The notes under the pieces were generated by a model. The model was not told where the DNA came from, ran no database searches, and worked only from the letters and a program-made list of their open reading frames with translations. DNA of 64,000 bases from an uncultured Hyphomicrobium sp. (GTDB lineage: Bacteria; Pseudomonadota; Alphaproteobacteria; Rhizobiales; Hyphomicrobiaceae), in assembly GCA_964651805.1 (NCBI GenBank), contig CAZYXX010000002.1, positions 281,516-345,515 of the forward strand, written 5' to 3'. This document shows, piece after piece, positions 31,970-47,970 of this stretch. The position numbers and the translations under genes were made by a program. Positions within the stretch are counted from its first letter, which is position 1; every line of letters begins with the position of its first letter.

Positions 31970-32344
31970 CTATCTACGCCAACCGTCAATCAGCTTGGAG
32001 ATGTCGGAAAAAACAAAAGGTTTGCCGAGGTGCGGCGCGCCGGCGTGGCGCGGGTCGATCGAATTAGGCCCATGTCCGGTGGCGAAGGCATAGGGGGTGC
32101 CTAAGTCCTTGAGGCGATCGGCTATGGGGTAGCTCGTTTGTCCGCCGGCCAGGGTAACGTCGAGAATTGCCCCCTGAAGGCTGTCTTTTCCGAGGTTGGC
32201 GATCAAATCCAAGGCGTCGGACACAGTCGCGCACGGACCCGCCACCATGCAGTTCAACTCATCCAAATAGTCCTGTAGCATAAGCGCGATCAGCGCTTCA
32301 TCGTCGACGATCAGGATGCGCGGCTTCAAGTGCAAATCTGCCAC
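31970..32344 (-). CDS. Single-domain response regulator, FATGUY (SdrG/MrrA-like) type
   Basis: ILIVDDE...AILDV...PYAFATGHG...KPF. Confidence 0.85.
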   Translation of the reverse strand: MADLHLKPRILIVDDEALIALMLQDYLDELNCMVAGPCATVSDALDLIANLGKDSLQGAILDVTLAGGQTSYPIADRLKDLGTPYAFATGHGPNSIDPRHAGAPHLGKPFVFSDISKLIDGWRR

Positions 32345-32453
32345 GGTGGTCCTCGCCGAGCTCGGTTATTCAGTAAAGCCGAAACAACCTAGCCGCCGCT
32401 CCCGGCAAATCAAGTAAGAACGCGCGTGAGAGGCAGTTCAGAGCAGGTTTTAG

Positions 32454-34337
32454 ATGCCACTTCGCGCTGTTTCGAAAGACTATCGCAAGCTCATCGCGGC
32501 CGCCGCGGGCGTCGGGTTTTTGTTCCTGACGGGTGCGGCGGCGATCCTAATGCTGCTGACCAGCCGAACAGCGAATAACTGGGTCGAGCACACTCAGAAC
32601 GTCATACTCGAAGCGACGCGTCTTGCGAGCCGCGTGGTCGACGCAGAATCATATCAGCGAAGCTATCTGATCACGGTCGATCCCACCTATCGGGAACTCT
32701 ACGTTCATTCACTCGGGGTTATCGAGTCGAAGTTCGAACTCCTGAAGGGGATGACGGTCGACAACGAGCGTCAGGTCGCAAAGCTTCAAGAGATTCGTAA
32801 AATACTCAAAAAACGGCTGGAGTTTCTGGCGCGGGGTGTTGCGCGCGCCGAGGAAGGAAAGAGGGACGAAGCGCTAAAGCTCGTCAAGGAAGGTGTCGGC
32901 AGGCAGCTTATGGCCGACCTCCGCAATCGTACCGAGGAATTCATATCAATCGAACGGGCGCTTCTTAAAGCGCGTCAGAACTATGCTGACCGTCTCGGCC
33001 AATGGCTGCTAGTTCTTATTGTCACGAGCCTCATTACAGCTGCGCTGACCTCGCTCTATTTGCTTCGCTCGATGCGCGGGTCACTTGACGATCTGTCGAA
33101 GCAAAAACAAAAACTCGAAGAGGAAATCGAGTTACGGCAACGGACCGAGGCGACGCTACGGCAGTCTCAAAAGATGGAGGCCGTCGGCCAGCTGACGGGC
33201 GGTATCGCGCACGACTTCAACAACCTTCTGACCGTCATTCTGGGAAATCTCGATACCCTCAGACGCCGCTTGGCCAAGTTGGACTTGCCTGACGCGGACA
33301 AACTGGTTCGGCCACTGGAAATGGCGCAGCATGCCGGTGGGAGTGCAGCGAAGTTGACACACCGGCTGCTCGCATTTTCCAGACAACAAGCGCTCGAACC
33401 CGTCGCAACAAACATCAATTCGCTCGTTGCGGGAATGTCGGATCTGCTACGCAGATCGGTCGGAGAGGAACACAAGATCGAGGTCGTGCTATCTGCCGGG
33501 CTGTGGACCGTGCACGTGGATCGCAACCAGCTTGAAAACGTCTTGCTCAATCTCGTCGTTAATTCTCGCGATGCCATGCCCGATGGCGGCAACATCACTA
33601 TAGAGACGGCGAACGCCTATCTCGATGAGGACTACGTTTCCAGATTCGGGGATATCGAAGCTGGACAATATGTGCTGTTGAGCGTCACGGATGCCGGCAT
33701 GGGTATCGCACCTGAACTCATCGATCGCATCTTTGAACCGTTTTTCACGACGAAAGGCGATGGGCGCGGTACGGGCCTGGGCCTCGCCATGGTCCACGGC
33801 TTCGTGAAGCAATCGGGCGGCCACGTGCGCGTGTACAGCGAAAACAATATCGGTGCGACGATCAAGATCTATCTGCCGCGCGTGCACGAGGAGGTGGTCG
33901 ACACAACCGGGCGATCCGCACGCTCGCACGAACGATCGATGCCTCGTGCGCTCGACGGAGAGACGATTCTCGTTGTTGAAGACAACGAAAGTGTGCGTGG
34001 ATTCGTGAGGGAAGCGCTGTCAGGGCTAGGTTACAAGGTCATCGAGGCGGAAAACGGTGACCACGCGCTCAAAATCATGGCGACAAGACCGCAGGTCGAT
34101 TTGGTCTTTACCGATGTGGTCATGCCTGGCGCAGTGAACGGGCGGAAGCTTGCCGATATGTTGAAAGTGGCTCATCCGAAACTCCCGGTTCTCTTCACCA
34201 CGGGTTTCACCCGAAATGCGATCGTTCACAACGGTCAGCTCGACCACGATGTTCAGCTGTTACACAAGCCATATGCGCAACATCAGCTCGCCTCTAAAGT
34301 TCGTTCCATGCTCGATCGTGCCAGGGCAAAGCCGTAG
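32454..34337 (+). CDS. CHASE3-sensor hybrid histidine kinase
   Basis: [10 protein letters not shown]...[10 protein letters not shown]; [10 protein letters not shown]; [11 protein letters not shown]; C-terminal receiver FTDVVMPG. Confidence 0.93.
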
Positions 34338-34368
34338 ATATTTTTCTGTAGCCATGCGGCGAGCGCGC

Positions 34369-34455
34369 TTACAATAGGCGCTGCCTTATAAACAAGTAGG
34401 CGGTTGCGGCGAGCGGAAGCAGGTTTAGCGCCAGTATGAAAAGCCGAAACAACAT
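34369..34455 (-). CDS. Putative 28-aa single-TM peptide (MLFRLFILALNLLPLAATAYLFIRQRLL)
   Basis: Hydrophobic helix with basic tail about 20 nt downstream of an exact EcfG promoter; no clear SD. Confidence 0.4.
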   Translation of the reverse strand: MLFRLFILALNLLPLAATAYLFIRQRLL

Positions 34456-34481
34456 GTCTATCGATTGCGAGCGTTCGATCG

Positions 34482-34506
34482 AACGCCGGTATCTAGCGGC
34501 GGTTCC
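34482..34506 (-). promoter_or_regulatory. EcfG (sigmaT/RpoE2) promoter
   Basis: Minus strand GGAAC-N16-CGTT. Confidence 0.7.
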
Positions 34507-34601
34507 TGTCTGCCGATCTGGCGGCGTTGCGAGTGCCAATCTAAAGAAACAGCTCTGGGGCCGCCGGAGCTGACTTCTGAACAAGCGTGGGCGCGAGATT
34601 T

Positions 34602-34736
34602 TCAGTTGTTCTGGTTTGCGTGAGAAACGTCGCTAGCACCGAGTTTCATCGGATAATCATTGTAGGCCGGCGTTTCTCGGCGGCAACCTGTGACAAAGAT
34701 TGCCGTGATAACGATCGCGATAGGAATAATCTTCAT
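34602..34736 (-). CDS. Small lipoprotein, 44 aa (not in ORF track)
   Basis: Hand translation MKIIPIAIVITAIFVTGCRRETPAYNDYPMKLGASDVSHANQNN; AAGGAG RBS; VTG-C lipobox. Confidence 0.75.
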   Translation of the reverse strand: MKIIPIAIVITAIFVTGCRRETPAYNDYPMKLGASDVSHANQNN

Positions 34737-35119
34737 GTTCCGCTCCTTTGTTGCCCCAGAATGGAACACAGATCGTGTCGTGTCTCGCGTGTTTGGCGTG
34801 TCTCGCCGTGTCCAGGACGCTTCACGAACTTTGATCGCGACGGCATGACGAGATCCGCCATACCAGTGAAATCAAATTCACGACGCCAAGTGCTGTCGCG
34901 CCATTTGCTGAAACGGAAATCGGACGCGAAGGTGCGATATTCGCTCAAGCGGCGCTGTTGCCGGTGTTCAAACGGCATGAGGTTGTGTCTCCCTTAGTGA
35001 AGCTCGAAAGGCCCAACGCGGCAGGCAGCTTCATGTTCCGTCTCTCTCATCGAGCTAAGGGACGGGCTGAACCCAATGTTCAGCCTGTCGAGAGGACGAG
35101 CTTTTGTTGTGCTCGGCAC

Positions 35120-35144
35120 GGAACCGTGACTGCACATGTGAGTT
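35120..35144 (+). promoter_or_regulatory. Near-consensus EcfG promoter
   Basis: GGAAC-N16-AGTT (one mismatch; GTT core retained). Confidence 0.5.
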
Positions 35145-35150
35145 CAATCG

Positions 35151-35294
35151 GAACAGCCCACGCGCTCAAGTTCGCGTGAGGCGTGATCGAGATGAGCTGA
35201 TCCATCCCCCTGGGGACCGGCTTATTTCGGATAAAACTGCCCGGACAACGCTCCCCTCCCCCTCCCGCACTGTTGTCCGGGCAGTTATTTTTTT
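35151..35294 (+). ncRNA. Candidate EcfG-dependent sRNA with C-rich loop
   Basis: Lies between an EcfG-like promoter and a 15-bp stem plus T7 terminator; loop contains TCCCCTCCCCCTCCC; no convincing plus-strand ORF; 5' end is estimated. Confidence 0.55.
35235..35294 (+). terminator. Intrinsic terminator (possibly bidirectional)
   Basis: AACTGCCCGGACAAC (35235-35249) / GTTGTCCGGGCAGTT (35272-35286) followed by ATTTTTTT. Confidence 0.85.
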
Positions 35295-35319
35295 GGACGT
35301 TAGGTGTGGTTTGGGAGCG

Positions 35320-36891
35320 TTAGGCAATGCGGGATTTGTCGATTCGGATTGAGGCCTTCAATCCGTCTTGTGCCCAGTCGTATTCAACATTGGAGCCGAG
35401 TTGGGCGGCACAAAGGGAGCCGATCAGTTTCGATCCGAAGCCCATGTTCTCGGGAGCAGCGGCTATTGCAGGACCGTTGCGCTCGTTCCACTCGAAAAGC
35501 ACTTCAGCTTCGGTCACGGTCAATCGCATATCAACGGAGCCGTCCGGCGTCGAAAGCGCGCCGTATTTTACGGCATTGGTAGCAAGTTCATGGACGGTAA
35601 GCGCTAGTGCAGTGCCCGCCAGTGAGCGGATCGTCAATTCGTCGCCACGGACTGTTATGCTGTTGTCACCGGTCAGCGATTTGTATGGCTCGACCAGAAC
35701 GCGCAACAGTTCCAGCATCGAAATGCGGTCGTCGCCCTGGTACATCAAATCGAATTGCCGGGCATCCACGAAGTCGTATACCCGCGACAGGGCCGTGAAT
35801 CGGCTGCGCAGCTCTTCGGCGTAATCCTTGATTTGCGAGGCCCGGCCGCGCGAACTCAATGAAATGAGGCTCGCGACCACCGCGAAGATATTCTTTATGC
35901 GGTGCTTGAGTTCCTTGGAGATGACATCACGCTGCTCTTCCGACACCTTGAGAGTATGAATATCCGTTGATGTTCCGAACCAGCGCTCGATTTCGCCATT
36001 TGCGCCACGAAGGGGTAATCCGCGCGCGAGCATCCATCTGAAGGAACCGGTGCGATCCTTGAGCCGATATTCTGTTTCGTAGCGTTCGCCGGTTTTCAAA
36101 GCCTTCGTCCAGGCGGCGGTCGTGTGCGCGATATCACTTGGGTGGAGAAGCTCAAGCCATTTGTCGTCCTTGCTTGAGGCCCAATCTGCTCCCGTGAATT
36201 CGTACCAGCGGTGATTGAAGAAGTCGGCCTCGCCGTCTGGAAGCGTGGACCAGACTTTCTGCGGGATCACGTTCAACACATCTCGCCAGCGCTTCTCCTT
36301 ACGCCGTGATTCGATCATAAAGTTCGCGACGGCGGCAAATTCCAGCAGTGTGCGTATGTCCGCATCCGTCCATTGCCGAGGAACCGCGTCGATGGCGCAT
36401 AAAGCGCCGAGCACATTTCCGTTTGATGAGGAGATTGGAACGCCTAGATAGGCGCGAACAGACAAGTCGCTTATTGCGAGATTGTTTGCCAGAAAATCAA
36501 TCTTCGTCGAATCGTTGACGATAAAGGGCTCGTTCGTGCCGACGACATACTGGCAAAATGAATGCGAGAGCGGTGTGCCTCGACTGGATGCCCAAGGCTC
36601 ATCTAGGCCGCAGGCGCTTTTGAAAAACTGCTTGTCCTCGGCCACAAGTGAAATCAGCGCGACGGGCGTCTTCAGGGTGCGGCAGACGAGCCGCGTTATG
36701 CTGTCGAACTCCGGCTCTGAGGGGGAGCCGAGTAGCTCGGTCGACGCAAGCGCGGCCAAACGCTCTGCATCCTGCAATTCACGCGTCGGATCCTGATGGA
36801 TCGAGTTCTCTTGTTGTTTCAGTTCAGGCCTCGCCCTGGAAGGTCCATCGCTCGTCGGCTCTCGCCCGGCAATTGAAACCATCCTCACCAC
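35320..36891 (-). CDS. GAF-PAS HWE-family histidine kinase
   Basis: GAF (RAYLGVPI..LGALCAID), PAS (FFNHRWYEFTG), ELKHRIKN, HELATNAVKYGAL, FEWNE. Confidence 0.93.
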   Translation of the reverse strand: MVRMVSIAGREPTSDGPSRARPELKQQENSIHQDPTRELQDAERLAALASTELLGSPSEPEFDSITRLVCRTLKTPVALISLVAEDKQFFKSACGLDEPWASSRGTPLSHSFCQYVVGTNEPFIVNDSTKIDFLANNLAISDLSVRAYLGVPISSSNGNVLGALCAIDAVPRQWTDADIRTLLEFAAVANFMIESRRKEKRWRDVLNVIPQKVWSTLPDGEADFFNHRWYEFTGADWASSKDDKWLELLHPSDIAHTTAAWTKALKTGERYETEYRLKDRTGSFRWMLARGLPLRGANGEIERWFGTSTDIHTLKVSEEQRDVISKELKHRIKNIFAVVASLISLSSRGRASQIKDYAEELRSRFTALSRVYDFVDARQFDLMYQGDDRISMLELLRVLVEPYKSLTGDNSITVRGDELTIRSLAGTALALTVHELATNAVKYGALSTPDGSVDMRLTVTEAEVLFEWNERNGPAIAAAPENMGFGSKLIGSLCAAQLGSNVEYDWAQDGLKASIRIDKSRIA

Positions 36892-37096: not shown

Positions 37097-38920
37097 TTAT
37101 GCCGCAGCCGCGTCTGTGCCGGGTTTGGGCGTGGTGCTCGTGTCCGAGATGCGGGACGCGACCAGAGCGGCGCGTGCTTGAATGTCATCGAAGCGCGATG
37201 CGGTTGCGATCTGGCTTCGATCCTCAATGTCATTAGGGGCAATTCCTCGCTCTCCGAGCGTGCGTGTCATAATGGTTGCGGCCGGAAAGATGGCCTTAGC
37301 TCTGCGGCTCAGCAATGATGCTTGTTTCACGTCAAGGAGCCCGACATTGACGATGATGACCGTATCGGGTTCGGTGTTGCGCTGATCTGACTTGAAGGTC
37401 GAAAGCGCCGTTATTCCGCTCGTCGTTCCAGCGGCGACAGCCAGGCCAGGTCGTTCCCGGTTGATGCACATCGCGATGGCTTTGGCGGCGACAATGTCAA
37501 TCGGGCCGCGAGCCGGAACCACGAGGATAGGAGGTTCGGACTCGTGATCTTCCGCGCGCGTTTCCTGGACGTTGCCGTCGAGTAATTCGAGGACGTCGAG
37601 CAGGGTATCGTCCAGTGCTTCGAGCGTCGCTGCGTCAAGCCGGCCTAATTTGTGGTCGACCGCGGCCATTTTCAGCGCTGGCAACACGATCTCGTCGATG
37701 GCCACGTTGTTCGATTTGGTGTCTTCGATCGCTTCCAATTGGTTCAAGGCAGAGATCACGTCGTTCGAAAGCAGTCGATGGTAAAATTCTTGGGGCGGGG
37801 TCAATGCCTGCTCGTCGCTAAGCAGAACGGTAAGGAAATTTAAGCTCGGAACGTAACGGCCGGCGACGCTGAATATCATCGTGATCGGGGCCGAAAGCAG
37901 AAGACCGAGCGGCCCCCAGACCAGCGTCCAGAAGCTGGCTGATAGGATCATTGCGAATGGCGACAGGCCGACGCGCTTGCCAAGTAACAGCGGCTCGATC
38001 ACGTGACCCATCATTGGCTCACCCAACAAGAAGAGTGCAACGGTCGCTATTGTCATGCTCCAACCGGGATCGACGGCGAGCGACAGCAGCACGGGTGGAA
38101 TTGCCGCGAGGAACGATCCGATAAACGGGATAAATCGCATTAGAAACGCGAACGCGCCCCAGAGCGCGGGATTGGGAATGCCTATCAGCCAGAGAGCGAT
38201 CGCCACAAACGTGCCGAAGCCGGCGTTGAGGAGAACGAGTGCGGTAAACAGGTTCGACAGCCGGCTGCCGGCGTCGGACATGGCTGATGTCGACGCACTT
38301 ATGTTGTCGGTTCCCGCGACGCGCACGATCCGGTCACGGATATCGCGATACTGGAAAAGCAGGAATAGCGTGAAAAGAAACGTCAGGCCGATCTGAGCGA
38401 CGGACGCTACCGCATGCTCCAGGATAGTGAAGGGTGATGCGCTGGTGTTGTTCGAGATGACAATCTTGCTGTCGGCGTTGTCATTTTGGCCAGAACTCTC
38501 GGCTGGGCGGCTAGACTTCAACTCTTGCTCGACAAGCCTTTGATAGCTTTCGATTGCGTCGATGGCGCGCTGCAGCGCGCCGCCGGACACGACTTGGCTC
38601 GACACGTCTTTCAGCTTGGTGGCGACGTTCGACTGGTATTGCGGGAGGCTTGCCGTAAGGCCGAGAAGCTGTGTGCTCATGGCGTAGGACGCCACGCCGA
38701 CCAAGCCGGTTGTCGTGCCGAGGACCAGCAGTATCGCGACGGTCTGTGGAATGCGGCGGCGCATCAGTGCGTCGACGACCGGCGACAGGATGAAGCAGAG
38801 AATGGCCGCAAGTGTGAGCGGGATAAGTATATCCTGGCCGAACACGAGCGCGGCTACCACGATCGCCGCAGTTATCAGCGACGACGTCAGGCTTCCAAGC
38901 GAAGCCGCGAACAGGGGCAT
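37097..38920 (-). CDS. AI-2E (PerM/UPF0118) family transporter with C-terminal cytoplasmic extension
   Basis: GQDILIPLTLA, GIPNPALWG..RFIPFIG, IEPLLLGKRVGLSP; GGAAGGAG RBS before ATG 38920. Confidence 0.9.
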   Translation of the reverse strand: MPLFAASLGSLTSSLITAAIVVAALVFGQDILIPLTLAAILCFILSPVVDALMRRRIPQTVAILLVLGTTTGLVGVASYAMSTQLLGLTASLPQYQSNVATKLKDVSSQVVSGGALQRAIDAIESYQRLVEQELKSSRPAESSGQNDNADSKIVISNNTSASPFTILEHAVASVAQIGLTFLFTLFLLFQYRDIRDRIVRVAGTDNISASTSAMSDAGSRLSNLFTALVLLNAGFGTFVAIALWLIGIPNPALWGAFAFLMRFIPFIGSFLAAIPPVLLSLAVDPGWSMTIATVALFLLGEPMMGHVIEPLLLGKRVGLSPFAMILSASFWTLVWGPLGLLLSAPITMIFSVAGRYVPSLNFLTVLLSDEQALTPPQEFYHRLLSNDVISALNQLEAIEDTKSNNVAIDEIVLPALKMAAVDHKLGRLDAATLEALDDTLLDVLELLDGNVQETRAEDHESEPPILVVPARGPIDIVAAKAIAMCINRERPGLAVAAGTTSGITALSTFKSDQRNTEPDTVIIVNVGLLDVKQASLLSRRAKAIFPAATIMTRTLGERGIAPNDIEDRSQIATASRFDDIQARAALVASRISDTSTTPKPGTDAAAA

Positions 38921-38957: not shown

Positions 38958-38982
38958 AACGGTTGTCGGCGTGACTTGTTCC
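38958..38982 (-). promoter_or_regulatory. EcfG promoter for the AI-2E transporter
   Basis: Minus strand GGAAC-N16-CGTT. Confidence 0.75.
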
Positions 38983-39025: not shown

Positions 39026-39051
39026 GGAACCGGAGTGTTTTCGGGGTCGTT
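39026..39051 (+). promoter_or_regulatory. EcfG promoter for ORF 39067
   Basis: GGAAC-N17-CGTT. Confidence 0.78.
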
Positions 39052-39066
39052 GCGGGATGAGGTGCG

Positions 39067-39432
39067 ATGAGCCTGCGCATTCAATGCTTTGGCGCGTTGG
39101 GAGCGCGTGGGCGTCAAAACGAGGATGTCGTGAACAAGAAGCTTCCGTCGCGCTCGGACTCCTGCCAAAGCGCCCGTGCTTTGCTGGCAGCGCGAGATGA
39201 AATCAGGAAACTCAAGACCAAGGTGCGCCGAAGTGTCAGCGAGCGCGGTGCGCGCGGAAAGTCCGCTATAGGGCAATCGATCGAGGCGCGAGAGATTCAG
39301 CAGAAAATCGCACGTCTGGAAGCAAAGCTCTCTCGCGTTGAAATGATGGAAGCCGGCGCGAAGAAGAGTAATCGCTGGCGTCGGCTGAGGCATGAATTCG
39401 AGGCGGTCCGCAGAGCGGTCGATGCCAAGTGA
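39067..39432 (+). CDS. Hypothetical basic coiled-coil protein
   Basis: GAGGT RBS and an EcfG promoter 15 nt upstream; K/R-rich helical composition. Confidence 0.6.
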   Translation: MSLRIQCFGALGARGRQNEDVVNKKLPSRSDSCQSARALLAARDEIRKLKTKVRRSVSERGARGKSAIGQSIEAREIQQKIARLEAKLSRVEMMEAGAKKSNRWRRLRHEFEAVRRAVDAK

Positions 39433-39475: not shown

Positions 39476-40222
39476 TTAAATGAGCGGACGGAGTACGGGA
39501 CCTACGCCTTCATAGCCGGATATCTGTGCCAGTTTGGCCTCGTCGATAATTTCAAGCGTCGAGCTTTGCCATTTCACAAGGCGTTGCGATACGAGCTTAT
39601 TGAGCGTCTTGTTCGTGTGCACGAGAGACAGGCCGAGTGCATCGGCCAAGTGCTGCTGCGTAATGGGCAGCTTGAGTTTTGCGCCAGTGACGAGGCCTAC
39701 ATGCCGGGCTCGAGTGAAAATGTCGAGCAAAACGCAGCCCATTTTTTCGATCGCCGTTCGTCGTCCGATTGTCAGGAGTTGTTCGTCCAGTAGCCGTTCA
39801 CTGCGTGATGCGAGCCAAGTCAAATCATAAGCCAGTGCCGGATGCTTCGCGTACAAATCCCATAGTTTGTCGCGTGGGAACACGCAAAGGACCATCTGCG
39901 AAAGAGCTTCTACCGAATGTTGCATTTCATTGAAGGTGGAATTCTGAAGGCCGAGAAAATCGCCCGGAAATACGAAGTTCAGGATCTGCCGGCGGCCGTC
40001 CTCCAGTGTCTTATAGCGAAACGCCCAGCCCGACAGGACGGTGAAGAGATGAGGGTTTGATGTTCCTTCCATCAGGATCGTTGCGCCCGGGTCCGTCACA
40101 AATTCTCCGGACTTGAACTCCTCAACAAAGCTCAATTCACCGGGTGAGATGGCACGGAAGATCTCGAGCGCCTTAAGAGGACATTTGCGGCAGGGTGTTT
40201 GACGCGGCACGGCGGCGGGCAT
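39476..40222 (-). CDS. Crp/Fnr family transcriptional regulator
   Basis: PCRKCPL N-terminus; cNMP barrel DGRRQILNFVFPGDFLG; HTH QQHLADALGLSLVHTNKTL. Confidence 0.92.
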   Translation of the reverse strand: MPAAVPRQTPCRKCPLKALEIFRAISPGELSFVEEFKSGEFVTDPGATILMEGTSNPHLFTVLSGWAFRYKTLEDGRRQILNFVFPGDFLGLQNSTFNEMQHSVEALSQMVLCVFPRDKLWDLYAKHPALAYDLTWLASRSERLLDEQLLTIGRRTAIEKMGCVLLDIFTRARHVGLVTGAKLKLPITQQHLADALGLSLVHTNKTLNKLVSQRLVKWQSSTLEIIDEAKLAQISGYEGVGPVLRPLI

Positions 40223-40315: not shown

Positions 40316-40341
40316 GGAACCGATGGGTGAAAAGCGGCGTT
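40316..40341 (+). promoter_or_regulatory. EcfG promoter for the DUF1328 gene
   Basis: GGAAC-N17-CGTT. Confidence 0.8.
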
Positions 40342-40381: not shown

Positions 40382-40555
40382 ATGGGCAATCTGCTTCACT
40401 ATGCGATCGTCTTCTTGGTTGTGGCGCTCGTTGCTGCGTTTCTCGGATTTGGCAGCGTGGCGGGAACTGCGATGGAAGGTGCGCGCATTCTGTTCTGGGT
40501 CGCGATCGTTCTGTTTGTCGTATCGCTGATTGCTGGGCTTTTTCGAAGAGCGTAG
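40382..40555 (+). CDS. DUF1328/UPF0391 small membrane protein, 57 aa (not in ORF track)
   Basis: Hand translation [57 protein letters not shown]; GGAG RBS. Confidence 0.9.
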
Positions 40556-40664
40556 CCTTATCAAGGGGCAGAGGCGCGCGATCGCGTCGTTATGAATCGG
40601 CCGGGGCCTCGCGCACCGGCCGGTTTGTCGTTGCGAACGGTATCTTGCTAGAGGACCTGAGCCG

Positions 40665-42065
40665 ATGAAAAGGCGAACGCGGGCAAAGTCAGCGGCAAGG
40701 CTTCTCATGATCCTTGCGGCCTTGCTGGTGCCAACGCTGTCGCTGTTGCCGCTCGGCGGCCTGTACCTCTACGAAAATGGCTACCTTCTCATCTGGGCGG
40801 GTCTCGCGCTCGTTGTGATCATCATCGTGTATGCGTTCGAGCGGTGGATTTTTGTGTCGACTGCGGTCGTGCCCGAGGTCGAGCCAGATTCCAACACGGC
40901 TCAGTCGCGCAGCTACAATGCGCTTGAGGAAAAAGCTTGGACGGACGTTCGGTTGCTGGCACGGTCGACCGACATCGAAAAGCTTGGCGATATACAGTCC
41001 GTGCTCGACCTTGGCCAGAAGACGGTCGAGACCGTTGCCCGGCGGCTTCATCCCGCTTCTTCTGACGCAGTCTGGCGCTTCACGCTACCTGAAGCCCTTA
41101 CTATCACGTCGCGTGTCAGCGCGGAGCTGTCTGAATTCGTCAACCAAAACCTACCCTTTGGTGATCGGCTGACGGTTTCGCAATTCCTGCAGGTCTACAG
41201 GTGGCGTTATCTCGCCGACGTCGCGGAGCGCGCATACGACATCTGGCGCGTTCTGCGTTTGGTCAATCCTGCAACCGCCGTAACGAACGAGGCGCGGGAG
41301 CGGCTGTCGCGTGCGCTGCTGTCGTGGAGCCGCGAGAAGATTACAAGACGTCTTGTCGAGGAGTACGTCGAACGCGTCGGCGAGGCCGCGATCGACCTCT
41401 ATGGCGGGCGATTGCGGGTTTCGGATGAAATATCGACGGCATCTGCCGCACCCCCGATTGGTAGCGACGCGGTAGGTCAGGCGTATCACCTCAGGGTGCT
41501 GCTCGTCAGCCGCGACGATAGACTGCGTTCGTCCGTTCGCGCGTTGCTTCGCGTCGGTCTCGGCAGAGCTATCGAGGGTGGTAGCAACTATCTCTTCGAG
41601 CTGGAGGAAGCCGCAACCTTGGCTCCGGTCCGGGTGAGAGAATACGACATGCTCGTTTTCTTGACGCCGGCGGATGAGACGGGTTTGGCGGAAGCGACGC
41701 TTGGAGACGATGTTCTCAAGCTGCTGGAAGCGGACGACGAAGCCACGCTACCTCCCGTCGCGATCGTCGCGATTTATGCCTTTCCTGATACTGTGCGTTA
41801 CGCTGAGAGTGTTGGACGCGATACGGGCTCTGCCAGCGTGCCGGCATCGGTCGTCGACTTGTCGATTGGGACAGAGCTGGACATGGCGGCCATCATACCG
41901 CTGCTTGCGCGCATGCGGCAGCTTGCGCCGAGTGCGGCGCGTGTTCACGCCGTCAGAACAAGGGCCGCGATGCGGGGGCGGCCGTGGACCCACTCTATCG
42001 TCCAGGCCGGTCGCGCCGCCGGCTCGCTCATCGGTAAGGTTGGCCGCAGCATCATCACGAGGTGA
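40665..42065 (+). CDS. Two-TM hypothetical protein, resembles membrane-anchored GTPase family but with degenerate P-loop
   Basis: N-terminal TMs; helical domain AYDIWRVLRLVNP...VGEAAIDLYGGRL; then LRVLLVSRDDRLRSS where a Walker A would be expected. Confidence 0.55.
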   Translation: MKRRTRAKSAARLLMILAALLVPTLSLLPLGGLYLYENGYLLIWAGLALVVIIIVYAFERWIFVSTAVVPEVEPDSNTAQSRSYNALEEKAWTDVRLLARSTDIEKLGDIQSVLDLGQKTVETVARRLHPASSDAVWRFTLPEALTITSRVSAELSEFVNQNLPFGDRLTVSQFLQVYRWRYLADVAERAYDIWRVLRLVNPATAVTNEARERLSRALLSWSREKITRRLVEEYVERVGEAAIDLYGGRLRVSDEISTASAAPPIGSDAVGQAYHLRVLLVSRDDRLRSSVRALLRVGLGRAIEGGSNYLFELEEAATLAPVRVREYDMLVFLTPADETGLAEATLGDDVLKLLEADDEATLPPVAIVAIYAFPDTVRYAESVGRDTGSASVPASVVDLSIGTELDMAAIIPLLARMRQLAPSAARVHAVRTRAAMRGRPWTHSIVQAGRAAGSLIGKVGRSIITR

Positions 42066-42086: not shown

Positions 42087-42112
42087 GGAACAAACGCGAG
42101 CGGTTCTGCGTT
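42087..42112 (+). promoter_or_regulatory. EcfG promoter for the 42160-43001 gene pair
   Basis: GGAAC-N17-CGTT. Confidence 0.8.
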
Positions 42113-42159: not shown

Positions 42160-42444
42160 ATGAATCGTTCCGCCTCGTATCAAAAGGACATCGAAACGAA
42201 GGTCGTCAGGGGTGCGGAAGAGGCGCTGAGTACCGCTGGGCACTACGCGGAAAAAGCGATCGACGCGGCTCAGAGCACGGCGAAGTCGGTTGCAGATCAG
42301 GGCCGCGATGTGGGTGAGCGCGTCAACGAGGTCGCAGGAAACTTCAAGACCGCATTGGACAAGTCCGTCACGACCCAACCGTTGACTACGCTCGTCACTG
42401 CGGCCGCCGTTGGCTTCGTACTCGGTGCGTTGTGGAAGTCGTGA
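42160..42444 (+). CDS. ElaB/YqjD (DUF883)-like tail-anchored stress protein
   Basis: Helical body ending QPLTTLVTAAAVGFVLGALWK; AGGAG RBS. Confidence 0.8.
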   Translation: MNRSASYQKDIETKVVRGAEEALSTAGHYAEKAIDAAQSTAKSVADQGRDVGERVNEVAGNFKTALDKSVTTQPLTTLVTAAAVGFVLGALWKS

Positions 42445-42488
42445 CGCTCCACGATTCGCACTAGGCATTTTCAACGCCCGAGGGAGAG

Positions 42489-43001
42489 ATGGCGATGTTC
42501 GGCGCACTCGTGCGGCGCGCGCAGCACACAATCGACAATGCGATTGAAAACGCGGTTACCCGCGCGCTCGTCGCCATACCGTTCCTCGTTGCAGTAGGTT
42601 TTCTTACCGTCGCGGCCAGTATTCGATTGACCGCAATGTATGGAGCGGAGACAGCGTACCTCATCCTCGCGGGCGTCTACGCATTCCTCGGACTTTTTGG
42701 ACTTGCGATTACGAACGCACGGTCGGTGAACCCGAGCGAGCCACCGGCAGCTGAAGCTGTTGAAACCGAGTCGGAGGAGGCCGCAAGCGAGGAAGCTACG
42801 GCAGACAGTTTCTCAAGCGCGGATCGGGAACTTCTTGTCGCGGCACTTACCTCGGCAGCACCCATCGCGTTGCCGTCCGTGCTTCGCGTCCTATATCGCA
42901 ACCTGCCAGTCGTGCTGGCTTTGTTAGCAACCGCACTCTTGTATTTGGGTGGCGAAGACGCTGAGGGCAGTGGCGAAAGCGCGCCGGTTCCGGCTGAATA
43001 G
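42489..43001 (+). CDS. Membrane protein, YqjE/phage-holin-3_6-like
   Basis: Two TM helices, acidic linker, third hydrophobic segment; follows the DUF883-like gene as in yqjDE-type pairs. Confidence 0.55.
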   Translation: MAMFGALVRRAQHTIDNAIENAVTRALVAIPFLVAVGFLTVAASIRLTAMYGAETAYLILAGVYAFLGLFGLAITNARSVNPSEPPAAEAVETESEEAASEEATADSFSSADRELLVAALTSAAPIALPSVLRVLYRNLPVVLALLATALLYLGGEDAEGSGESAPVPAE

Positions 43002-43005
43002 CCCA

Positions 43006-43030
43006 GGAACCATAGCGGTGGCGGCACGTT
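43006..43030 (+). promoter_or_regulatory. EcfG promoter for nepR-ecfG
   Basis: GGAAC-N16-CGTT. Confidence 0.85.
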
Positions 43031-43120
43031 GGACAGTCGCTATTTCCGAGCTAGGTTGTTTCGATTTTGCGGCCGGGGAGAGCTCAAGGAATGGCTGACA
43101 GAGAAACCAAGAAACCGGAA

Positions 43121-43291
43121 ATGACCGACACAACGACTACGGGTTCGGAGGAACAGATTAGCCTTCCAGAGGAAGTCCAATCGAGGTTGGGCAAGGAGTT
43201 GCGCAACGTCTACGGCAAACTTCTCGCTGAACCTCTGCCCGATCGCTTTTCCGAGCTTCTGAAGAAGCTCGCGACCGACGAAAGCAAGTGA
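43121..43291 (+). CDS. nepR: Anti-sigma factor NepR (alternative start 43091)
   Basis: RLGKELRNVYGKLLAEPLPDRFSELLKKL; overlaps the start of ecfG. Confidence 0.9.
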   Translation: MTDTTTTGSEEQISLPEEVQSRLGKELRNVYGKLLAEPLPDRFSELLKKLATDESK

Positions 43292-43842
43292 TGGACGATC
43301 AGGCGAGTCAACAGTTTCAGGAAGATCTGGCGTCGTTCGTGCCGAACTTGCGCGCCTTCGGTCGCTCGCTTTGCGGCAACGCCGACCACGCCGACGACCT
43401 CGTGCAAGAGACTCTCGTCAAGGCATGGAAGAACCGCGACAGTTTTGCGCAGGGATCGAACCTGAAGGCGTGGCTGTTCACAATCCTGCGCAACTCGTTT
43501 CTTTCGGAGCGTAGGAAGCTGAAGAATGAGGTACGCGATCTCGATGGCGAGTACGCGGCGCGTTCAGCGGTCAGTCCAGCACAATCGGGCCACATGGACC
43601 TCATCGATTTCGAGAAGGCTCTTTCCGAGCTGCCCTCCGACCAGAAGGAGGCGCTGCTCCTAGTTGGCGCAGAAGGGTTTTCATACGAGGACGCGGCGCT
43701 CATGTGTGGTTGTGCGGTTGGAACGATCAAAAGCCGCGTTAACCGCGCGCGCAGCAAGCTTGCCGAGCGCCTCGGTATTGAGGGGGCAAGCGATTACGGA
43801 AACGATGCGCAAGCGCATTGGGCTCGTTCAGCCGTAAAGTAA
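43288..43842 (+). CDS. ecfG: ECF sigma factor EcfG (ECF15)
   Basis: NLRAFGRSLCGNADHADDLVQETLVKAW; NLKAWLFTILRN; CAVGTIKSRVNRAR. Confidence 0.93.
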   Translation: MMDDQASQQFQEDLASFVPNLRAFGRSLCGNADHADDLVQETLVKAWKNRDSFAQGSNLKAWLFTILRNSFLSERRKLKNEVRDLDGEYAARSAVSPAQSGHMDLIDFEKALSELPSDQKEALLLVGAEGFSYEDAALMCGCAVGTIKSRVNRARSKLAERLGIEGASDYGNDAQAHWARSAVK

Positions 43843-43881
43843 CTGTCTGTTCCTAAATAATAAATTTTTATGCTCTCGGAC

Positions 43882-43907
43882 GGAACCAGCGCGCCTTCAG
43901 CAGCGTT
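43882..43907 (+). promoter_or_regulatory. EcfG promoter for phyR
   Basis: GGAAC-N17-CGTT. Confidence 0.85.
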
Positions 43908-43946
43908 GTACAGAGGTTTCGCATGACCACGCACAGGGGATCTTGC

Positions 43947-44756
43947 ATGTCGCTTGCTGACTTGATCGGCCCAGAATTGCCGTTCCTGCGCCGCTTCGCC
44001 CGAGCCTTGGGTGGCTCTCAGGAACGCGGCGACGCTTACGTCGTTGCCACTCTAGAGACGCTCGTTGCGGATCCGAGAAGTTTCCGGAGCGATCTCAAGC
44101 CGCGTGTCGCGCTCTACAAATGCTTCCTTAGCATCTGGAACGCCATGCCGATCAACGCAGAAGTCGAGCCGGCCGGATCGGATATCATTTCGGCGGCCGA
44201 TCGGCGGATCGAATCGATCACGCCTTTGCCGCGCCAGGCGTTCCTGTTGGCGGCGGTGGAGGAGTTCTCACCCGCTGATATCGCCGTGCTGCTCGATCGC
44301 AGCGAGGATGAGGTTGCGGCGCTTATCGATGAAGCAGCGGCTGAAATCGCCGATCAGATCTCGGCTCGCGTGCTCATCATTGAGGATGAACCGCTGATCG
44401 CGCTCGATATCGAGAATATCGTTCGGGAGATTGGCCATGACGTGGTTGCGATCGCCGCTACACACAAAGAAGCGACCGCCGAGGCGGCGCGCACCAAACC
44501 CAATATCGTCCTTGCCGACATTCAGCTGGCCGACGGCAGCTCAGGCATCGATGCGGTCAACGAAATACTCCTGAATTTGAACGTGCCGGTTGTCTTCATC
44601 ACGGCCTATCCGGAGCGGTTGCTGACGGGCGAGAGACCGGAGCCCGCATTCCTAATGACCAAGCCGTTCCGTGCCGAAATGGTGAAGGCAGTTGTAAGCC
44701 AAGCTCTTTTCTTCGACGTAAAGGCGGGACCGGCGCGAACCGGGGCGGCGGCGTAA
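43947..44756 (+). CDS. phyR: Anti-anti-sigma response regulator PhyR
   Basis: Sigma-like domain LPFLRRFARALGGSQERGDAYV plus C-terminal receiver ADIQLADGSSG...FITAYPERLLTG. Confidence 0.95.
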   Translation: MSLADLIGPELPFLRRFARALGGSQERGDAYVVATLETLVADPRSFRSDLKPRVALYKCFLSIWNAMPINAEVEPAGSDIISAADRRIESITPLPRQAFLLAAVEEFSPADIAVLLDRSEDEVAALIDEAAAEIADQISARVLIIEDEPLIALDIENIVREIGHDVVAIAATHKEATAEAARTKPNIVLADIQLADGSSGIDAVNEILLNLNVPVVFITAYPERLLTGERPEPAFLMTKPFRAEMVKAVVSQALFFDVKAGPARTGAAA

Positions 44757-44761
44757 GCGTT
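44736..44761 (+). promoter_or_regulatory. Near-consensus EcfG promoter for the HWE kinase
   Basis: CGAAC-N17-CGTT (one mismatch). Confidence 0.5.
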
Positions 44762-44839
44762 ACCAAATTTGCCAACGTCGCCGGCAAAGAGCGACCAACG
44801 AAGATTGTCAGATGATCTAGCAGTGTCGAGAACAGGCCT

Positions 44840-46621
44840 ATGAGAGGCGCAAGCCCGTTTCTCGATTCCCCGGACGGAATGCTTTCACGGATGGCAGAGC
44901 AGCTGCTGACGGTCAGCGGCGACTGCGTGAAAGTCATTTCAGCAGATGGCCGCGTTCTTCACATCAATGAGGCGGGCCGGCGATTGCTCGAGGTCGAGAA
45001 CGGCGAGAGCGTCGTTGGTCAGGACTGGATCAGCACATGGCCCGAAAACGCCCAGCCCGATGTCAGGAAAGCGTTTGACGCGGCACTATCGGGTTTAGTT
45101 CACCGCTTCTCTGCTGCATGTCCGACGGCATCAGGGACGCTCAAATACTGGGATGTCGTCGCCAGCCCGTTGACGCGGGCCGATGGATGCATCGATGGAG
45201 CGCTCGTTGTCTCGCGTGACAACACGGCTTCTATTCTGCTTCAAAAGGTCTTGCTTGAGAGCGAGCAGCGTTTCCGTGCGCTCGCCGACAACATGGCCCA
45301 GCTTGCCTGGATTACCGACGGGGACGGCTGGGTCTACTGGTACAATCAACGCTGGTACGATTATACGGGGACGGCGCTGGACGAGATGAAGGGCTGGGGC
45401 TGGCAGAAGGTCCTTCACCCGGATTTCGTTGAGCGCGTATCTGTTAAGATCAAGGCGTGCTTTGCGAGCGGTGAACCCTGGGAAGATACGTTTCCACTGC
45501 GCGACAAGGATGGTCGTTACCGGTGGTTCCTGTCGCGCGCAAACCCTGTGCGGGATGGTGCGGGCAAGATCGTTCTTTGGTGCGGAACCAATACCGATAT
45601 TACGGAGCAGAGGGAGCTGAGCTTGCGCCTTCGGCAGCTGGCGCGGCTCGTGGAGCTTTCTCACGAAGCGATCATGGTTTCAGATACCAGTGGCGACGTG
45701 GTGTTGTGGAACAAGGGATGCGAAGACGTCTACGGGTACACACGCGCTGAAGCCATCGGCAAACGCCCGGATGAGCTTCTTCACACGCGCTATCCCGTGG
45801 ACCGGCAGCGCTTCCTGCAGGAAATTCTGGAAAGCCGGAGCTGGCGCGGCGAGATTGAGCAGGTCTCAAAATCAGGAACGGTATTGTGGATCGAGACCCG
45901 GCTTGAGGTGCTCGAGTTCGACGGGGCGACGTTCGTTCTGGAAACGAACCGCGATGCGACCGAACGGAAAGCGGCGGAGCGGTCGCAATCGATCCTCATC
46001 GGGGAGCTCAATCACCGGGTCAAAAACACGTTGGCGATCGTTCAATCGATCGTCACGCTAATGGCGAAGCGCACCACGGATGTCGGGCGTTTCGTTGCGG
46101 ATTTCCGGCGGCGCCTTCAGTCTCTGGCGTTTGCGCACGATCTGTTGACCGAAGCGCAGTGGAAAGGTGCCGAGCTGTCGGAGCTGGTCAAATTTGAAGC
46201 GGAGGCCAGGATCCTGGAGGCAGGCCGCTTTCGCGTACGCGGGGACCCTGTGTTCCTGCCGCCGCAGCTTGCGATCCACTTTGCGCTTATTGTTCATGAG
46301 CTAACGAATAATGCCGTCGAGCATGGTGCGCTTAGCGGAGGCTTGGGCGTCGTGAATGTGACCTGGGCGATCACTGGAAAGGACGAACTGACCGTCGAAT
46401 GGCGCGAGACAGGCGGCCCAAGGCCGGCTGGCGGTAGGCCGAGTGGATATGGAACGACGCTGATCGACCGCCTGGGCAGCCTGCCGCATTTGCGCACGCA
46501 GCTTTCGTTCAACGACGATGGCTTTGCCTGCATTATGAAAATCAGACTGCCAGCGGAGCAGAGCAGTAATCCCAGCGACTATTTCGATGTTACCAGCGGG
46601 CGCCGCGCGCGTCCGCTCTGA
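44840..46621 (+). CDS. Triple-PAS HWE-family histidine kinase
   Basis: Three PAS repeats; ELNHRVKN, HELTNNAVEHGAL, VEWRETGGP. Confidence 0.93.
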   Translation: MRGASPFLDSPDGMLSRMAEQLLTVSGDCVKVISADGRVLHINEAGRRLLEVENGESVVGQDWISTWPENAQPDVRKAFDAALSGLVHRFSAACPTASGTLKYWDVVASPLTRADGCIDGALVVSRDNTASILLQKVLLESEQRFRALADNMAQLAWITDGDGWVYWYNQRWYDYTGTALDEMKGWGWQKVLHPDFVERVSVKIKACFASGEPWEDTFPLRDKDGRYRWFLSRANPVRDGAGKIVLWCGTNTDITEQRELSLRLRQLARLVELSHEAIMVSDTSGDVVLWNKGCEDVYGYTRAEAIGKRPDELLHTRYPVDRQRFLQEILESRSWRGEIEQVSKSGTVLWIETRLEVLEFDGATFVLETNRDATERKAAERSQSILIGELNHRVKNTLAIVQSIVTLMAKRTTDVGRFVADFRRRLQSLAFAHDLLTEAQWKGAELSELVKFEAEARILEAGRFRVRGDPVFLPPQLAIHFALIVHELTNNAVEHGALSGGLGVVNVTWAITGKDELTVEWRETGGPRPAGGRPSGYGTTLIDRLGSLPHLRTQLSFNDDGFACIMKIRLPAEQSSNPSDYFDVTSGRRARPL

Positions 46622-46710
46622 GGCCGTAATCGACGGACCATGAAAATGCGCGGCGCCATCGTCCTCTGGGCCGCGCACACTAGTTTGTTGAAACGCGCGT
46701 TGTACCGTTT

Positions 46711-47205
46711 TTAAGCGCTCTTGGTGATCGTTTCTTTGGCGCGATTGAAGCCGTCGACGAGCTGCTGGACGATAGGCCCCACGGCCCGCTTAATTTCCGT
46801 ATCAGGAAGCGCCTTCGCGAGTGCGGAGAAGCGATCGTCGATGTTCATGCGGCGCAATTCAGATCGCACCGTGTCGCTGATGTCGTCGCTCACGCGAGAC
46901 AGTTCTCTTCGCCATTTGCGATCCGGCGTCCGGTTGCCGGTTCTTCGGTTGCTCAGCACTATAGCAACGAGCGCCGCGGAAGCGGCAATGCCGATCGCAA
47001 CGGGAATGGGGTTCGCTTTGATATACTTTTCGGCCGTAGCGTAAAGATCCTGCGCGCTGTCAGCGACAGCTTCCGCTTTCTCCGACGCTTTGTCTTTGAC
47101 GTTTGCAACGTCCTTCTTCAGCTTGTCGAACAAAGCTTCGAGCGACGCGAGGCGTTCATCGGACGTTGTCGATACTCCAAAGTCCTGAGATTTAATCGGT
47201 TGCAT
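46711..47205 (-). CDS. Hypothetical DUF883-like protein with central TM
   Basis: YIKANPIPVAIGIAASAALVAIVL; has its own EcfG promoter. Confidence 0.7.
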   Translation of the reverse strand: MQPIKSQDFGVSTTSDERLASLEALFDKLKKDVANVKDKASEKAEAVADSAQDLYATAEKYIKANPIPVAIGIAASAALVAIVLSNRRTGNRTPDRKWRRELSRVSDDISDTVRSELRRMNIDDRFSALAKALPDTEIKRAVGPIVQQLVDGFNRAKETITKSA

Positions 47206-47244
47206 AATCGTCCCTAGGTTGGTCTGGATAGAAAGCTAAGTTGC

Positions 47245-47270
47245 AACGCGCGACCGAGCACACGAGTTCC
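47245..47270 (-). promoter_or_regulatory. EcfG promoter for ORF 46711-47205
   Basis: Minus strand GGAAC-N17-CGTT. Confidence 0.8.
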
Positions 47271-47274
47271 GCGC

Positions 47275-47493
47275 CTATTCTTGCCTTTCGCGCAGATGCA
47301 ACGCGTGGGAATGGATGTCGGGATCTACGACCTCGATCACCTCTTGATCCTTCCCGTCGTCGTCCTGAAGGTTTTTGTCGACTTCGCGCAGTTTCTCGTG
47401 AGCGTCGATGATTTGCCATGGCAACGGCTTGATGAGCGCGCAGTCGAACAAGTGCCCGAGCTTTAAGCCGATCCGTTCCATCAAACGGTTCAT
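47275..47493 (-). CDS. Second, stand-alone NepR-like anti-sigma protein
   Basis: RIGLKLGHLFDCALIKPLPWQIIDAHEKL fits the NepR pattern IGxxLxx[YF]DxxxxxPxPxxxxxLLxxL; GGAGAG RBS; acidic tail. Confidence 0.65.
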   Translation of the reverse strand: MNRLMERIGLKLGHLFDCALIKPLPWQIIDAHEKLREVDKNLQDDDGKDQEVIEVVDPDIHSHALHLRERQE

Positions 47494-47531
47494 CGTGGCT
47501 CTCCGTAGTTTCGGAGCAAACTTTGCTTGTT

Positions 47532-47557
47532 AACGTGGCCGACGACCCCATTGTTCC
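47532..47557 (-). promoter_or_regulatory. EcfG promoter for the NepR-like gene
   Basis: Minus strand GGAAC-N17-CGTT. Confidence 0.8.
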
Positions 47558-47584
47558 GTAGTGCGCAACGACGCTCTGCGATGC

Positions 47585-47613
47585 AAAAAAGCCCGAAGCA
47601 TCGCTTCGGGCTT
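47585..47613 (-). terminator. Intrinsic terminator after csbD
   Basis: AAGCCCGAAGC-ATC-GCTTCGGGCTT with an A6 run on plus (U-tract on minus). Confidence 0.85.
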
Positions 47614-47646
47614 CACTAAAAATGCGATCGCGAGAACGTGGATTGG

Positions 47647-47844
47647 TTACATCGCATCCGTCCATCGATCGATTTCGGCCTTCGCCTTGTCCTTTGCGTA
47701 GCCGTAACGCTCCTGAAGAATACCTTCGAGCTGTTCGCGGCTACCGTTGACGCGGGCAATATCGTCGTCAGTCAGGTTGCCCCAGTTCTCTTTGACCTTG
47801 CCGGCGAACTGCTTCCAATTCCCTTCGATGCGATCCCAATTCAT
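47647..47844 (-). CDS. csbD: CsbD family stress protein
   Basis: MNWDRIEGNWKQFAGKVKENWGNLTDDD...LEGILQERYG. Confidence 0.95.
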   Translation of the reverse strand: MNWDRIEGNWKQFAGKVKENWGNLTDDDIARVNGSREQLEGILQERYGYAKDKAKAEIDRWTDAM

Positions 47845-47945
47845 CTTGAACCCTTTCTCTTCAATTTACCGGCGAGATGGCGCACGAGATGTGCGAAAGC
47901 GATACCGGTGAGCGTGATGCGTCCGTGGCGCCGCATGCCTAATAA

Positions 47946-47970
47946 AACGCGCGCGTAGAGTGGGGGTTCC
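47946..47970 (-). promoter_or_regulatory. EcfG promoter for csbD
   Basis: Minus strand GGAAC-N16-CGTT. Confidence 0.8.

Follow-up and report, generated by a model that had tools for sequence, protein, structure and literature searches.

Clustered EcfG-type promoter motifs around a nepR-ecfG-phyR locus of Hyphomicrobium

The systems closest to the locus described here are those composed of PhyR, NepR and EcfG, an extracytoplasmic function (ECF) sigma factor (group ECF15), for which the promoter consensus GGAAC-N16/17-CGTT has been published (PMC4814048; PMC3892343; PMC7083833), together with autoregulation and effectors such as csbD (PMC4814048; PMC3892343; PMC7083833; PMC6599016). Motif-bearing units number 19 in the whole regulon of Rhizobium etli (PMC3892343) and 79 genome-wide in Sphingopyxis granuli (PMC7083833). 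The present analysis concerns a 64,000-bp stretch of DNA from an uncultured Hyphomicrobium sp. (contig CAZYXX010000002.1, positions 281,516 to 345,515; hereafter the window, within which all positions are counted), and specifically a block at 31970-47970 that is very probably this species' chromosomal locus for the general stress response (GSR), with EcfG reading its GGAAC-N16/17-CGTT promoters.

Hyphomicrobium species are methylotrophs and denitrifiers that are common in bioreactors and water systems. The block provides an unusually compact set of EcfG promoters in this genus that can be read from sequence, and no study of the stress response of Hyphomicrobium was found in the literature searched.

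Promoter motifs and the core switch

The motif GGAAC-N16/17-CGTT was searched on both strands of the window, with 100 dinucleotide-preserving shuffles serving as the null. Twelve exact matches were found; the shuffles averaged 1.32 and did not exceed 4, none of the 100 reaching 12. All twelve fall within 34482-47970, a segment comprising 21% of the window, and the other ~50 kb contain none. The shuffle-based chance rate, ~0.29 exact motifs per 14 kb, agrees with the figure of ~0.2 per 14 kb put forward in the original prediction, an earlier reading of this DNA from which the analysis departed. That reading had also identified the motif as the ECF15 consensus, and it does match the published EcfG consensus (PMC4814048; PMC3892343; PMC7083833). 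Ten exact sites had been listed (34482, 38958, 39026, 40316, 42087, 43006, 43882, 47245, 47532 and 47946), and the motif search returned every one of them at its given coordinate; two more had been overlooked, namely an intergenic and conserved site at 35015 (minus strand), before orf81, and a site at 44021 (plus strand) within phyR.

Eleven of the twelve exact motifs are intergenic and correctly oriented, with a start codon 16-102 nt downstream and, in most cases, a Shine-Dalgarno sequence. The units located behind them are pep28, orf81 (with a lipoprotein gene), AI-2E, orf121, DUF1328 (with orf466), DUF883 (with mem170), nepR-ecfG, phyR, orf164, orf72 and csbD. Count, clustering, placement and orientation of the motifs are direct observations, as are the gene identities, which derive from a gene map built on an open reading frame (ORF) listing, translation, and Pfam and NCBIfam scans. 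Approximately 17 transcription units were recognized in 31970-47970; 11 have an exact motif and one, a small RNA (sRNA) candidate, has a conserved near-consensus motif, such that twelve motif-bearing units (eleven exact promoters and one near-consensus) are packed within 13.5 kb. The proposal that most units stand behind a site of their own is thus borne out for 12 of ~17 units, with right place and orientation, and the proposed clustering of core switch, sensors and effectors is likewise upheld by the presence of NepR, EcfG, PhyR, an HWE kinase, further sensors and typical GSR effectors. The core switch comprises the following features, with strand given as plus or minus.

43006..43030, plus: exact motif (N16) before nepR-ecfG, predicted autoregulatory promoter
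43091..43291, plus: nepR, 66 aa
43291..43842, plus: ecfG, 183 aa, EcfG-type sigma factor gene overlapping the end of nepR
43882..43907, plus: exact motif (N17) before phyR
43923..44756, plus: phyR, sigma-like domain and receiver, co-directional with nepR-ecfG
44021..44045, plus: exact motif within phyR, over the codons for QERGDAYVV
44736..44761, plus: one-mismatch motif CGAAC-N17-CGTT, which overlaps the stop codon of phyR and stands 79 nt ahead of the kinase gene
44840..46621, plus: PASx3-HWE histidine kinase, directly downstream of phyR

NepR matches PF18557 with 39.8 bits (cut-off 25.7). EcfG matches Sigma70_r2 (3.1e-16), Sigma70_r4_2 (2.1e-15) and PhyR_sigma2 (6.9e-14) in Pfam as well as NF009199 in NCBIfam (246.6 bits, cut-off 219), and its gene, located in the middle of the cluster, is the sole ECF sigma gene in the window. 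PhyR contains PhyR_sigma2, PhyR_sigma-like and Response_reg domains and matches NF006623 with 347.7 bits (cut-off 240), while the downstream kinase carries an HWE_HK domain (1.3e-23) and is syntenic across Hyphomicrobiaceae. Gene calls made independently on same-species Logan contigs agree with the map, giving the 66-aa nepR and the 183-aa ecfG as well as orf72, orf121 and orf164. Assignment to the ECF15/EcfG-NepR-PhyR type is based upon the EcfG-type sigma factor, the overlapping nepR upstream, PhyR, the HWE kinase, and the motif before both nepR-ecfG and phyR, all of which were found. The remaining units that follow an exact motif are listed below.

34369..34455, minus: pep28, a 28-aa hydrophobic membrane peptide (MLFRLFILALNLLPLAATAYLFIRQRLL)
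34482..34506, minus: exact motif (N16), 26 nt from the start codon of pep28
34602..34736, minus: 44-aa lipoprotein (MKIIPIAIVITAIFVTGC...; in full MKIIPIAIVITAIFVTGCRRETPAYNDYPMKLGASDVSHANQNN) with lipobox VTGC, preceded by an AAGGAG Shine-Dalgarno sequence
34733..34978, minus: orf81, small basic protein of no known family
35015..35039, minus: exact motif (N16) before orf81
37097..38920, minus: PerM-like permease of the AI-2E family, carrying a long C-terminal extension
38958..38982, minus: exact motif, 38 nt from the start codon of AI-2E and placed back to back with the promoter of orf121
39026..39051, plus: exact motif (N17) before orf121
39067..39432, plus: orf121, basic coiled-coil-like protein of no known family
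40316..40341, plus: exact motif (N17), 41 nt before DUF1328
40382-40555, plus: DUF1328 protein, 57 aa, first gene of an operon with orf466 (operon 40382..42065)
40665-42065, plus: orf466, protein with two transmembrane (TM) helices and no known family, in the DUF1328 operon
42087..42112, plus: exact motif (N17), 48 nt before DUF883
42160-42444, plus: DUF883/ElaB-like protein, 94 aa, in an operon with mem170 (operon 42160..43001)
42489-43001, plus: mem170, holin-X-like membrane protein, 170 aa, second gene of the DUF883 operon
46711..47205, minus: orf164, membrane-anchored protein, weakly ElaB/DUF883/YtxH-like
47245..47270, minus: exact motif (N17) before orf164
47275..47493, minus: orf72, lineage-restricted small protein
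47532..47557, minus: exact motif (N17) before orf72
47647..47844, minus: csbD, 65 aa, classic GSR effector
47946..47970, minus: exact motif (N16), 102 nt before csbD

Typical stress effectors are represented in the block by CsbD, DUF1328, two DUF883/ElaB-like proteins and the AI-2E permease; in S. granuli, EcfG is known to target csbD directly (PMC7083833).

Conservation of the promoter boxes and alternative readings

A PhyR-based scan, limited to one genome per species, yielded 80 loci from relatives. The closest (L001), from the Hyphomicrobium metagenome-assembled genome (MAG) RBC081, encodes a PhyR that is 96% identical and shows ~75% DNA identity across the block; it represents a species different from that of the window and is hence useful for footprinting. 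An exact motif is kept in L001 at 10 of the 12 window sites. Across the 10 conserved intergenic sites (including the near-consensus site at 35120), the boxes are identical at 90 of 90 nt as compared with 44% (71/163) in the spacers, a selective conservation that is observed directly and indicates clear purifying selection upon the promoter boxes.

In L002-L019, Hyphomicrobiaceae loci whose PhyR is 64-70% identical, a syntenic core is composed of AI-2E (minus), DUF1328-orf466, DUF883-mem170, nepR-ecfG, phyR and the HWE kinase, and exact boxes around unrelated spacers reappear ahead of DUF1328, DUF883, nepR, phyR and csbD. Specifically, exact boxes were found before DUF1328 in 12 of 16 related loci, before DUF883 in 14 of 16 relatives, before phyR in 15 of 26 and before nepR-ecfG in most Hyphomicrobiaceae loci. 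The operon-internal genes orf466, mem170 and ecfG supply a built-in negative control, and upstream of them in L002-L019 there is nothing better than a match with 1-3 mismatches; no EcfG site precedes orf466 in any relative. Upstream of AI-2E, L002-L018 mostly carry GCAAC-N16-GCGTT, a consistently conserved single deviation from GGAAC, and L001 has TGTT at DUF1328. Both GCAAC at the -35 position and TGTT or CATT at the -10 position are documented functional variants of EcfG promoters in S. granuli, where GCAAC is the second most frequent -35 box among GSR promoters (PMC7083833).

Several observations weigh against the reading of the block as a GSR locus whose promoters are read by EcfG. Firstly, five units lack an exact motif, namely the receiver REC124, the CHASE3 kinase, the GAF-PAS kinase, the Crp-family regulator and possibly the PASx3 kinase. 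Secondly, the -35 box GGAAC is common to many ECF groups. Thirdly, one-mismatch matches occur in the window at chance level (21 versus 17.1 expected, and 17 versus 16.6 expected), and the two such sites named originally, 35120 and 44736, therefore need support beyond statistics. Both are present as written. The former is backed by its conservation in L001; the latter is conserved in L001 only, where coding constraint could account for it. The class as a whole was discarded on account of its chance frequency, with 35120 alone retained. A relaxed motif, GGAAC-N17/18-GTT, adds 35120 within the region and one site beyond it. Fourthly, the exact match at 44021 is probably fortuitous and explained by coding constraint: its spacer is identical to that of L001 at 13 of 16 positions with changes at third codon positions only, and the motif is absent in L002-L019 despite conservation of the peptide there.

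Two further points belong here. In L001 (9040-9160), the -35 box of the nepR-ecfG promoter reads AAAAC instead of GGAAC, while the -10 region, GGCACGTTGGACAG, is identical to that of the window at 43006-43030; autoregulation is accordingly not invariant, and the altered box reflects either autoregulation that is weaker in that species or a fault in the assembly of the MAG. Lastly, six public runs aligned to the region give flat coverage or isolated contigs of 165-220 nt that cross predicted transcript starts, a pattern that resembles a Hyphomicrobium contaminant carried over at the DNA level and is uninformative on transcript starts and expression. Near-identical fragments of 34300-35400 and 42000-48000 occur at low depth in RNA-seq runs of several organisms with unrelated labels, as fits a common laboratory or water-system contaminant.

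Among the alternatives, the one that survives best holds that the promoters are real and that some or all of them are read by another ECF sigma factor encoded elsewhere in the genome, whether an EcfG paralogue or a member of an AAC/CGT-type group. We regard this as unlikely, given that the window's sole ECF sigma gene sits mid-cluster, that the same motif before nepR-ecfG and phyR is a hallmark of autoregulation, and that the effector families are those published for EcfG regulons; the view is, however, limited to 64 kb of genome, and the -35 box is the widely shared one discussed above. In addition, many alphaproteobacteria possess several EcfG paralogues of overlapping specificity (PMC4814048; PMC3892343; PMC7083833).

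Very unlikely, in turn, is the proposal that the 16-kb stretch is a horizontally acquired island bearing a portable stress regulon beside a tRNA-Met gene. GC content is indeed 0.55-0.59 in 32-48 kb as opposed to 0.60-0.64 in the flanks, yet this is explained by the many short genes and long intergenic regions, and GC content at third codon positions (GC3) in the genes of the stretch (0.60-0.74) overlaps that of flanking genes (0.64-0.74). Similarly, tRNA-Met is located at the right edge (48161-48237), but no tRNA-derived direct repeats of at least 12 nt were found anywhere in the window, and there is no integrase, transposase or other mobility gene among its annotated products. While the left arm (pep28, orf81-lipoprotein and the sRNA candidate) and the right arm (orf164, orf72 and csbD) are shared with the closest relative, RBC081, only, the core running from AI-2E to the HWE kinase keeps its synteny throughout Hyphomicrobiaceae, as an examination of synteny in relatives, a check advised at the outset, established. 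The mobile-island reading was dropped on the strength of the missing tRNA repeats, the normal GC3 and the lack of mobility genes, and the block is an island solely in the sense of a cluster; the term "super-island" originally applied to it was overstated, as nothing points to a mobile element and Hyphomicrobiales as a rule have EcfG sites densely clustered around phyR.

That the motif matches are a by-product of chance or composition devoid of promoter function is next to inconceivable: although the 44021 match is intragenic and explained by conserved codons and the window's one-mismatch matches occur at chance level, no shuffle out of 100 (mean 1.32) reaches 12, the sites all lie in 21% of the window, 11 of 12 are intergenic and correctly oriented, and boxes that are identical at 90 of 90 nt in L001, against 44% for spacers, recur at orthologous genes in ~20 further species.

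Sensors, lineage-restricted small genes and a candidate sRNA

In addition to the units behind exact motifs, the block contains the features listed here.

31970..32344, minus: REC124, single-domain receiver, 124 aa; no EcfG site upstream
32454..34337, plus: CHASE3-HisKA-HATPase-REC hybrid histidine kinase (domains from Pfam), candidate sensor; no EcfG site upstream
35120..35144, plus: near-consensus EcfG-type site GGAAC-N16-AGTT
35151..35296, plus: candidate sRNA of ~145 nt, no ORF
35320..36891, minus: GAF-PAS-HWE histidine kinase (HWE_HK 2.7e-12); without a site of its own
39476..40222, minus: Crp/Fnr-family regulator; no EcfG site upstream

REC124 contains the motif PYAFATGH, which matches 5 of the 7 specified positions of the FATGUY motif PFXFATG[G/Y] of SdrG and MrrA (PMC5964349), deviating by Y for F and by H for G/Y, and its best NCBIfam matches include the PhyR-type receiver. 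The gap between the GAF-PAS-HWE kinase gene and the AI-2E gene is 205 nt, and the two may share a transcript. The orf466 product, with its two N-terminal TM helices, is conserved across Hyphomicrobium and matches no Pfam family, its one lead being a weak match to SLATT_2 (E = 0.027). Immediately left of the cluster, a gcvT-like aminomethyltransferase gene (30478-31722, minus) has a glycine riboswitch aptamer upstream (31787-31875, minus; Rfam RF00504, 60.5 bits); in the right flank, tRNA-Met (48161-48237) is followed by a gene (48582-50447, plus) encoding a fused chorismate-binding (PabB-like) and aminotransferase class IV (PabC-like) protein.

The expectation that the promoters would reveal unannotated or hard-to-annotate genes proved sound, as exemplified by the 28-aa membrane peptide, the 44-aa lipoprotein, orf81, orf72, orf121 and the sRNA candidate. 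In L001, pep28, orf81, orf121, orf72 and orf164 are each present as intact ORFs with a conserved core, a variable tail and a bias of substitutions toward third codon positions. Conservation covers the C-terminal 20 aa and the stop codon of pep28 (whose promoter retains its boxes, with a spacer identity of 6/16), the N-terminal ~50 aa of orf81, and the N-terminal 38 aa of orf72, which ends in an acidic tail. The lipoprotein gene, which falls under the 50-aa cut-off of the ORF list, was found by means of the L001 alignment and is itself conserved there; its ATG and the stop codon of orf81 overlap by 4 nt, and the two genes therefore probably form an operon. In orf121 the C-terminal ~86 aa alone are conserved in L001, on which basis the true start is probably the GTG at 39130.

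To the eye, a segment of orf72, IGLKLGHLFDCALIKPLPWQIID, resembles the NepR core IGxxLRxxYxxxLxEPLPDRF, and orf72 was considered as a NepR paralogue. Profile tests gave this no support, and it was set aside: there is no Pfam NepR match even at E = 10, a hidden Markov model of 43 NepR sequences gives 0.6 bits, no better than shuffles, and the hhalign probability is 20%. Among 1.84 billion protein representatives searched with HMMER, orf72 has one true related cluster, the remaining matches being low-complexity repeats.

The sRNA candidate at 35151-35296 is predicted to fold into three hairpins with C-rich loops (UCCCCCUGGGG and CUCCCCUCCCCCUCCCGC) and to end in a 15-bp terminator stem followed by U7, with a minimum free energy of -64 kcal/mol (z = -4.9). 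In L001 the site upstream has the same boxes, including AGTT, with 8 of 16 spacer positions identical, and the RNA is conserved with two compensatory pairs. Criteria for recognizing GsrN-like sRNAs outside the Caulobacteraceae have been given as an EcfG-type promoter, closeness to the GSR locus and a C-rich loop (Tien et al. 2018, PMC5869019), and by these criteria 35151-35296 is a candidate GsrN-like sRNA. Rfam searched at a permissive threshold gave no match above noise in 35100-35300 (best Scr3202, E = 3), though Rfam may hold no GsrN model; homologues were found by nhmmer over all 80 loci in L001 only, and a metagenome scan for the terminator hairpin was empty. Contigs from RNA runs that overlap 35001-35220 extend through the predicted start and have the appearance of stray fragments derived from DNA. 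The 15-bp hairpin at 35225-35296 (ACTGCCCGGACAAC...GTTGTCCGGGCAGT) is very strongly conserved and flanked by T-runs on both strands, and its long C-rich loop is invariant in L001 except for a length difference of two C; it resembles a terminator that acts in both directions, for the sRNA candidate (plus) and for the convergent GAF-PAS-HWE kinase gene (minus).

On the favored reading, namely that the block is a GSR locus whose promoters are used by EcfG, we infer both the transcript starts and the wiring of the phosphorelay. PhyR would be phosphorylated by stress-sensing HWE kinases, of which the block encodes two, a step into which the CHASE3 hybrid kinase, along with the FATGUY-like receiver, possibly feeds; phosphorylated PhyR would then sequester NepR, thereby freeing sigma-EcfG. 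Free EcfG would direct RNA polymerase to the GGAAC-N16/17-CGTT promoters of its own operon (nepR-ecfG), of phyR and of the effector units. The latter would include AI-2E (perhaps together with the GAF-PAS-HWE kinase), DUF1328-orf466, DUF883 with its membrane protein, orf164 and csbD, and, additionally, four lineage-restricted small-protein units (pep28, orf81 with the 44-aa lipoprotein, orf121 and orf72) and the sRNA candidate with its C-rich loops.

Comparison with known systems

Set against the 19 and 79 motif-bearing units of R. etli and S. granuli, the numbers suggest that the block may hold a sizeable share of the regulon. More tentative, and on balance doubtful, is the stronger proposition that at least a quarter of the direct EcfG regulon lies in one 14-kb block, along with undescribed components, namely a non-homologous sRNA with C-rich loops in the role of GsrN and the lineage-restricted small proteins (pep28, orf81 with the lipoprotein, orf121 and orf72), at least one of these proteins possibly feeding back on the switch. 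The arrangement is rich but ordinary, being common in related bacteria, and leaves the understanding of how the GSR works unchanged; the value added is modest and consists of new candidate regulon members and the sRNA candidate. Practical use can be seen in two respects: the promoters flag genes that gene callers missed or left nameless, thus providing a short list of candidate GSR effectors, and the occurrence of ~7 EcfG-type sites within ±10 kb of phyR across Hyphomicrobiales makes a useful annotation rule.

With the PhyR-NepR-EcfG (ECF15) loci of Sphingomonas melonis, S. granuli, R. etli and Caulobacter crescentus, the block shares the gene set, the motif before nepR-ecfG and phyR, and CsbD-type effectors. 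It differs in that phyR is co-directional with nepR-ecfG, the usual arrangement being divergent (PMC4814048), and in the high density of its sites, with 12 exact ones within ±10 kb of phyR, to be set beside the 19 units of the whole R. etli regulon and the 79 found genome-wide in S. granuli. In the window (43067-46621) and in L001-L019, nepR-ecfG, phyR and the HWE kinase gene all run in one direction, while L021-L026 have the usual divergent order.

Like the FATGUY regulators SdrG and MrrA, REC124 is a stand-alone receiver, here at the edge of the GSR cluster, and its motif is a near match; it differs from them by deviating at two motif positions and by having no EcfG site upstream. The sRNA candidate resembles GsrN in its conserved near-consensus site, its location inside the cluster ~8 kb from ecfG, its predicted exposed C-rich loops and its intrinsic terminator. 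It differs from GsrN in having no detectable sequence or Rfam homology, in carrying its C-rich tracts on the second hairpin and the terminator hairpin instead of in a 5' loop, and in being found in two species only.

The closest likeness is to other phyR neighborhoods of the Hyphomicrobiales. All 80 loci together contain 464 exact sites in 1.41 Mb, ~16 times the shuffle rate of the window, with a concentration between -7 kb and +3 kb relative to phyR. Where the flanks are complete out to ±10 kb (56 loci), the median is ~7 exact sites and the maximum 12; the window, in the same frame, has 12. In Mesorhizobium-type loci, sites are located before genes for DUF883/ElaB-like, AI-2E, NepR, PhyR, DUF1328, HWE-kinase and small membrane proteins. 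From these counts and this placement it follows that dense packing of EcfG promoters around phyR is a general Hyphomicrobiales trait, with the window at the top of the range and not an outlier; the "regulon-in-a-block" layout appears general in the order, and we know of no such description. Taken together, the neighborhoods of Mesorhizobium, Aquamicrobium, Aquibium and other Hyphomicrobium share with the block the same dense exact sites and the recurrence of DUF1328, DUF883/ElaB-like, AI-2E, CsbD, HWE kinases and small membrane proteins, and the block differs from them in that it ties the maximum count and adds two lineage-specific arms.

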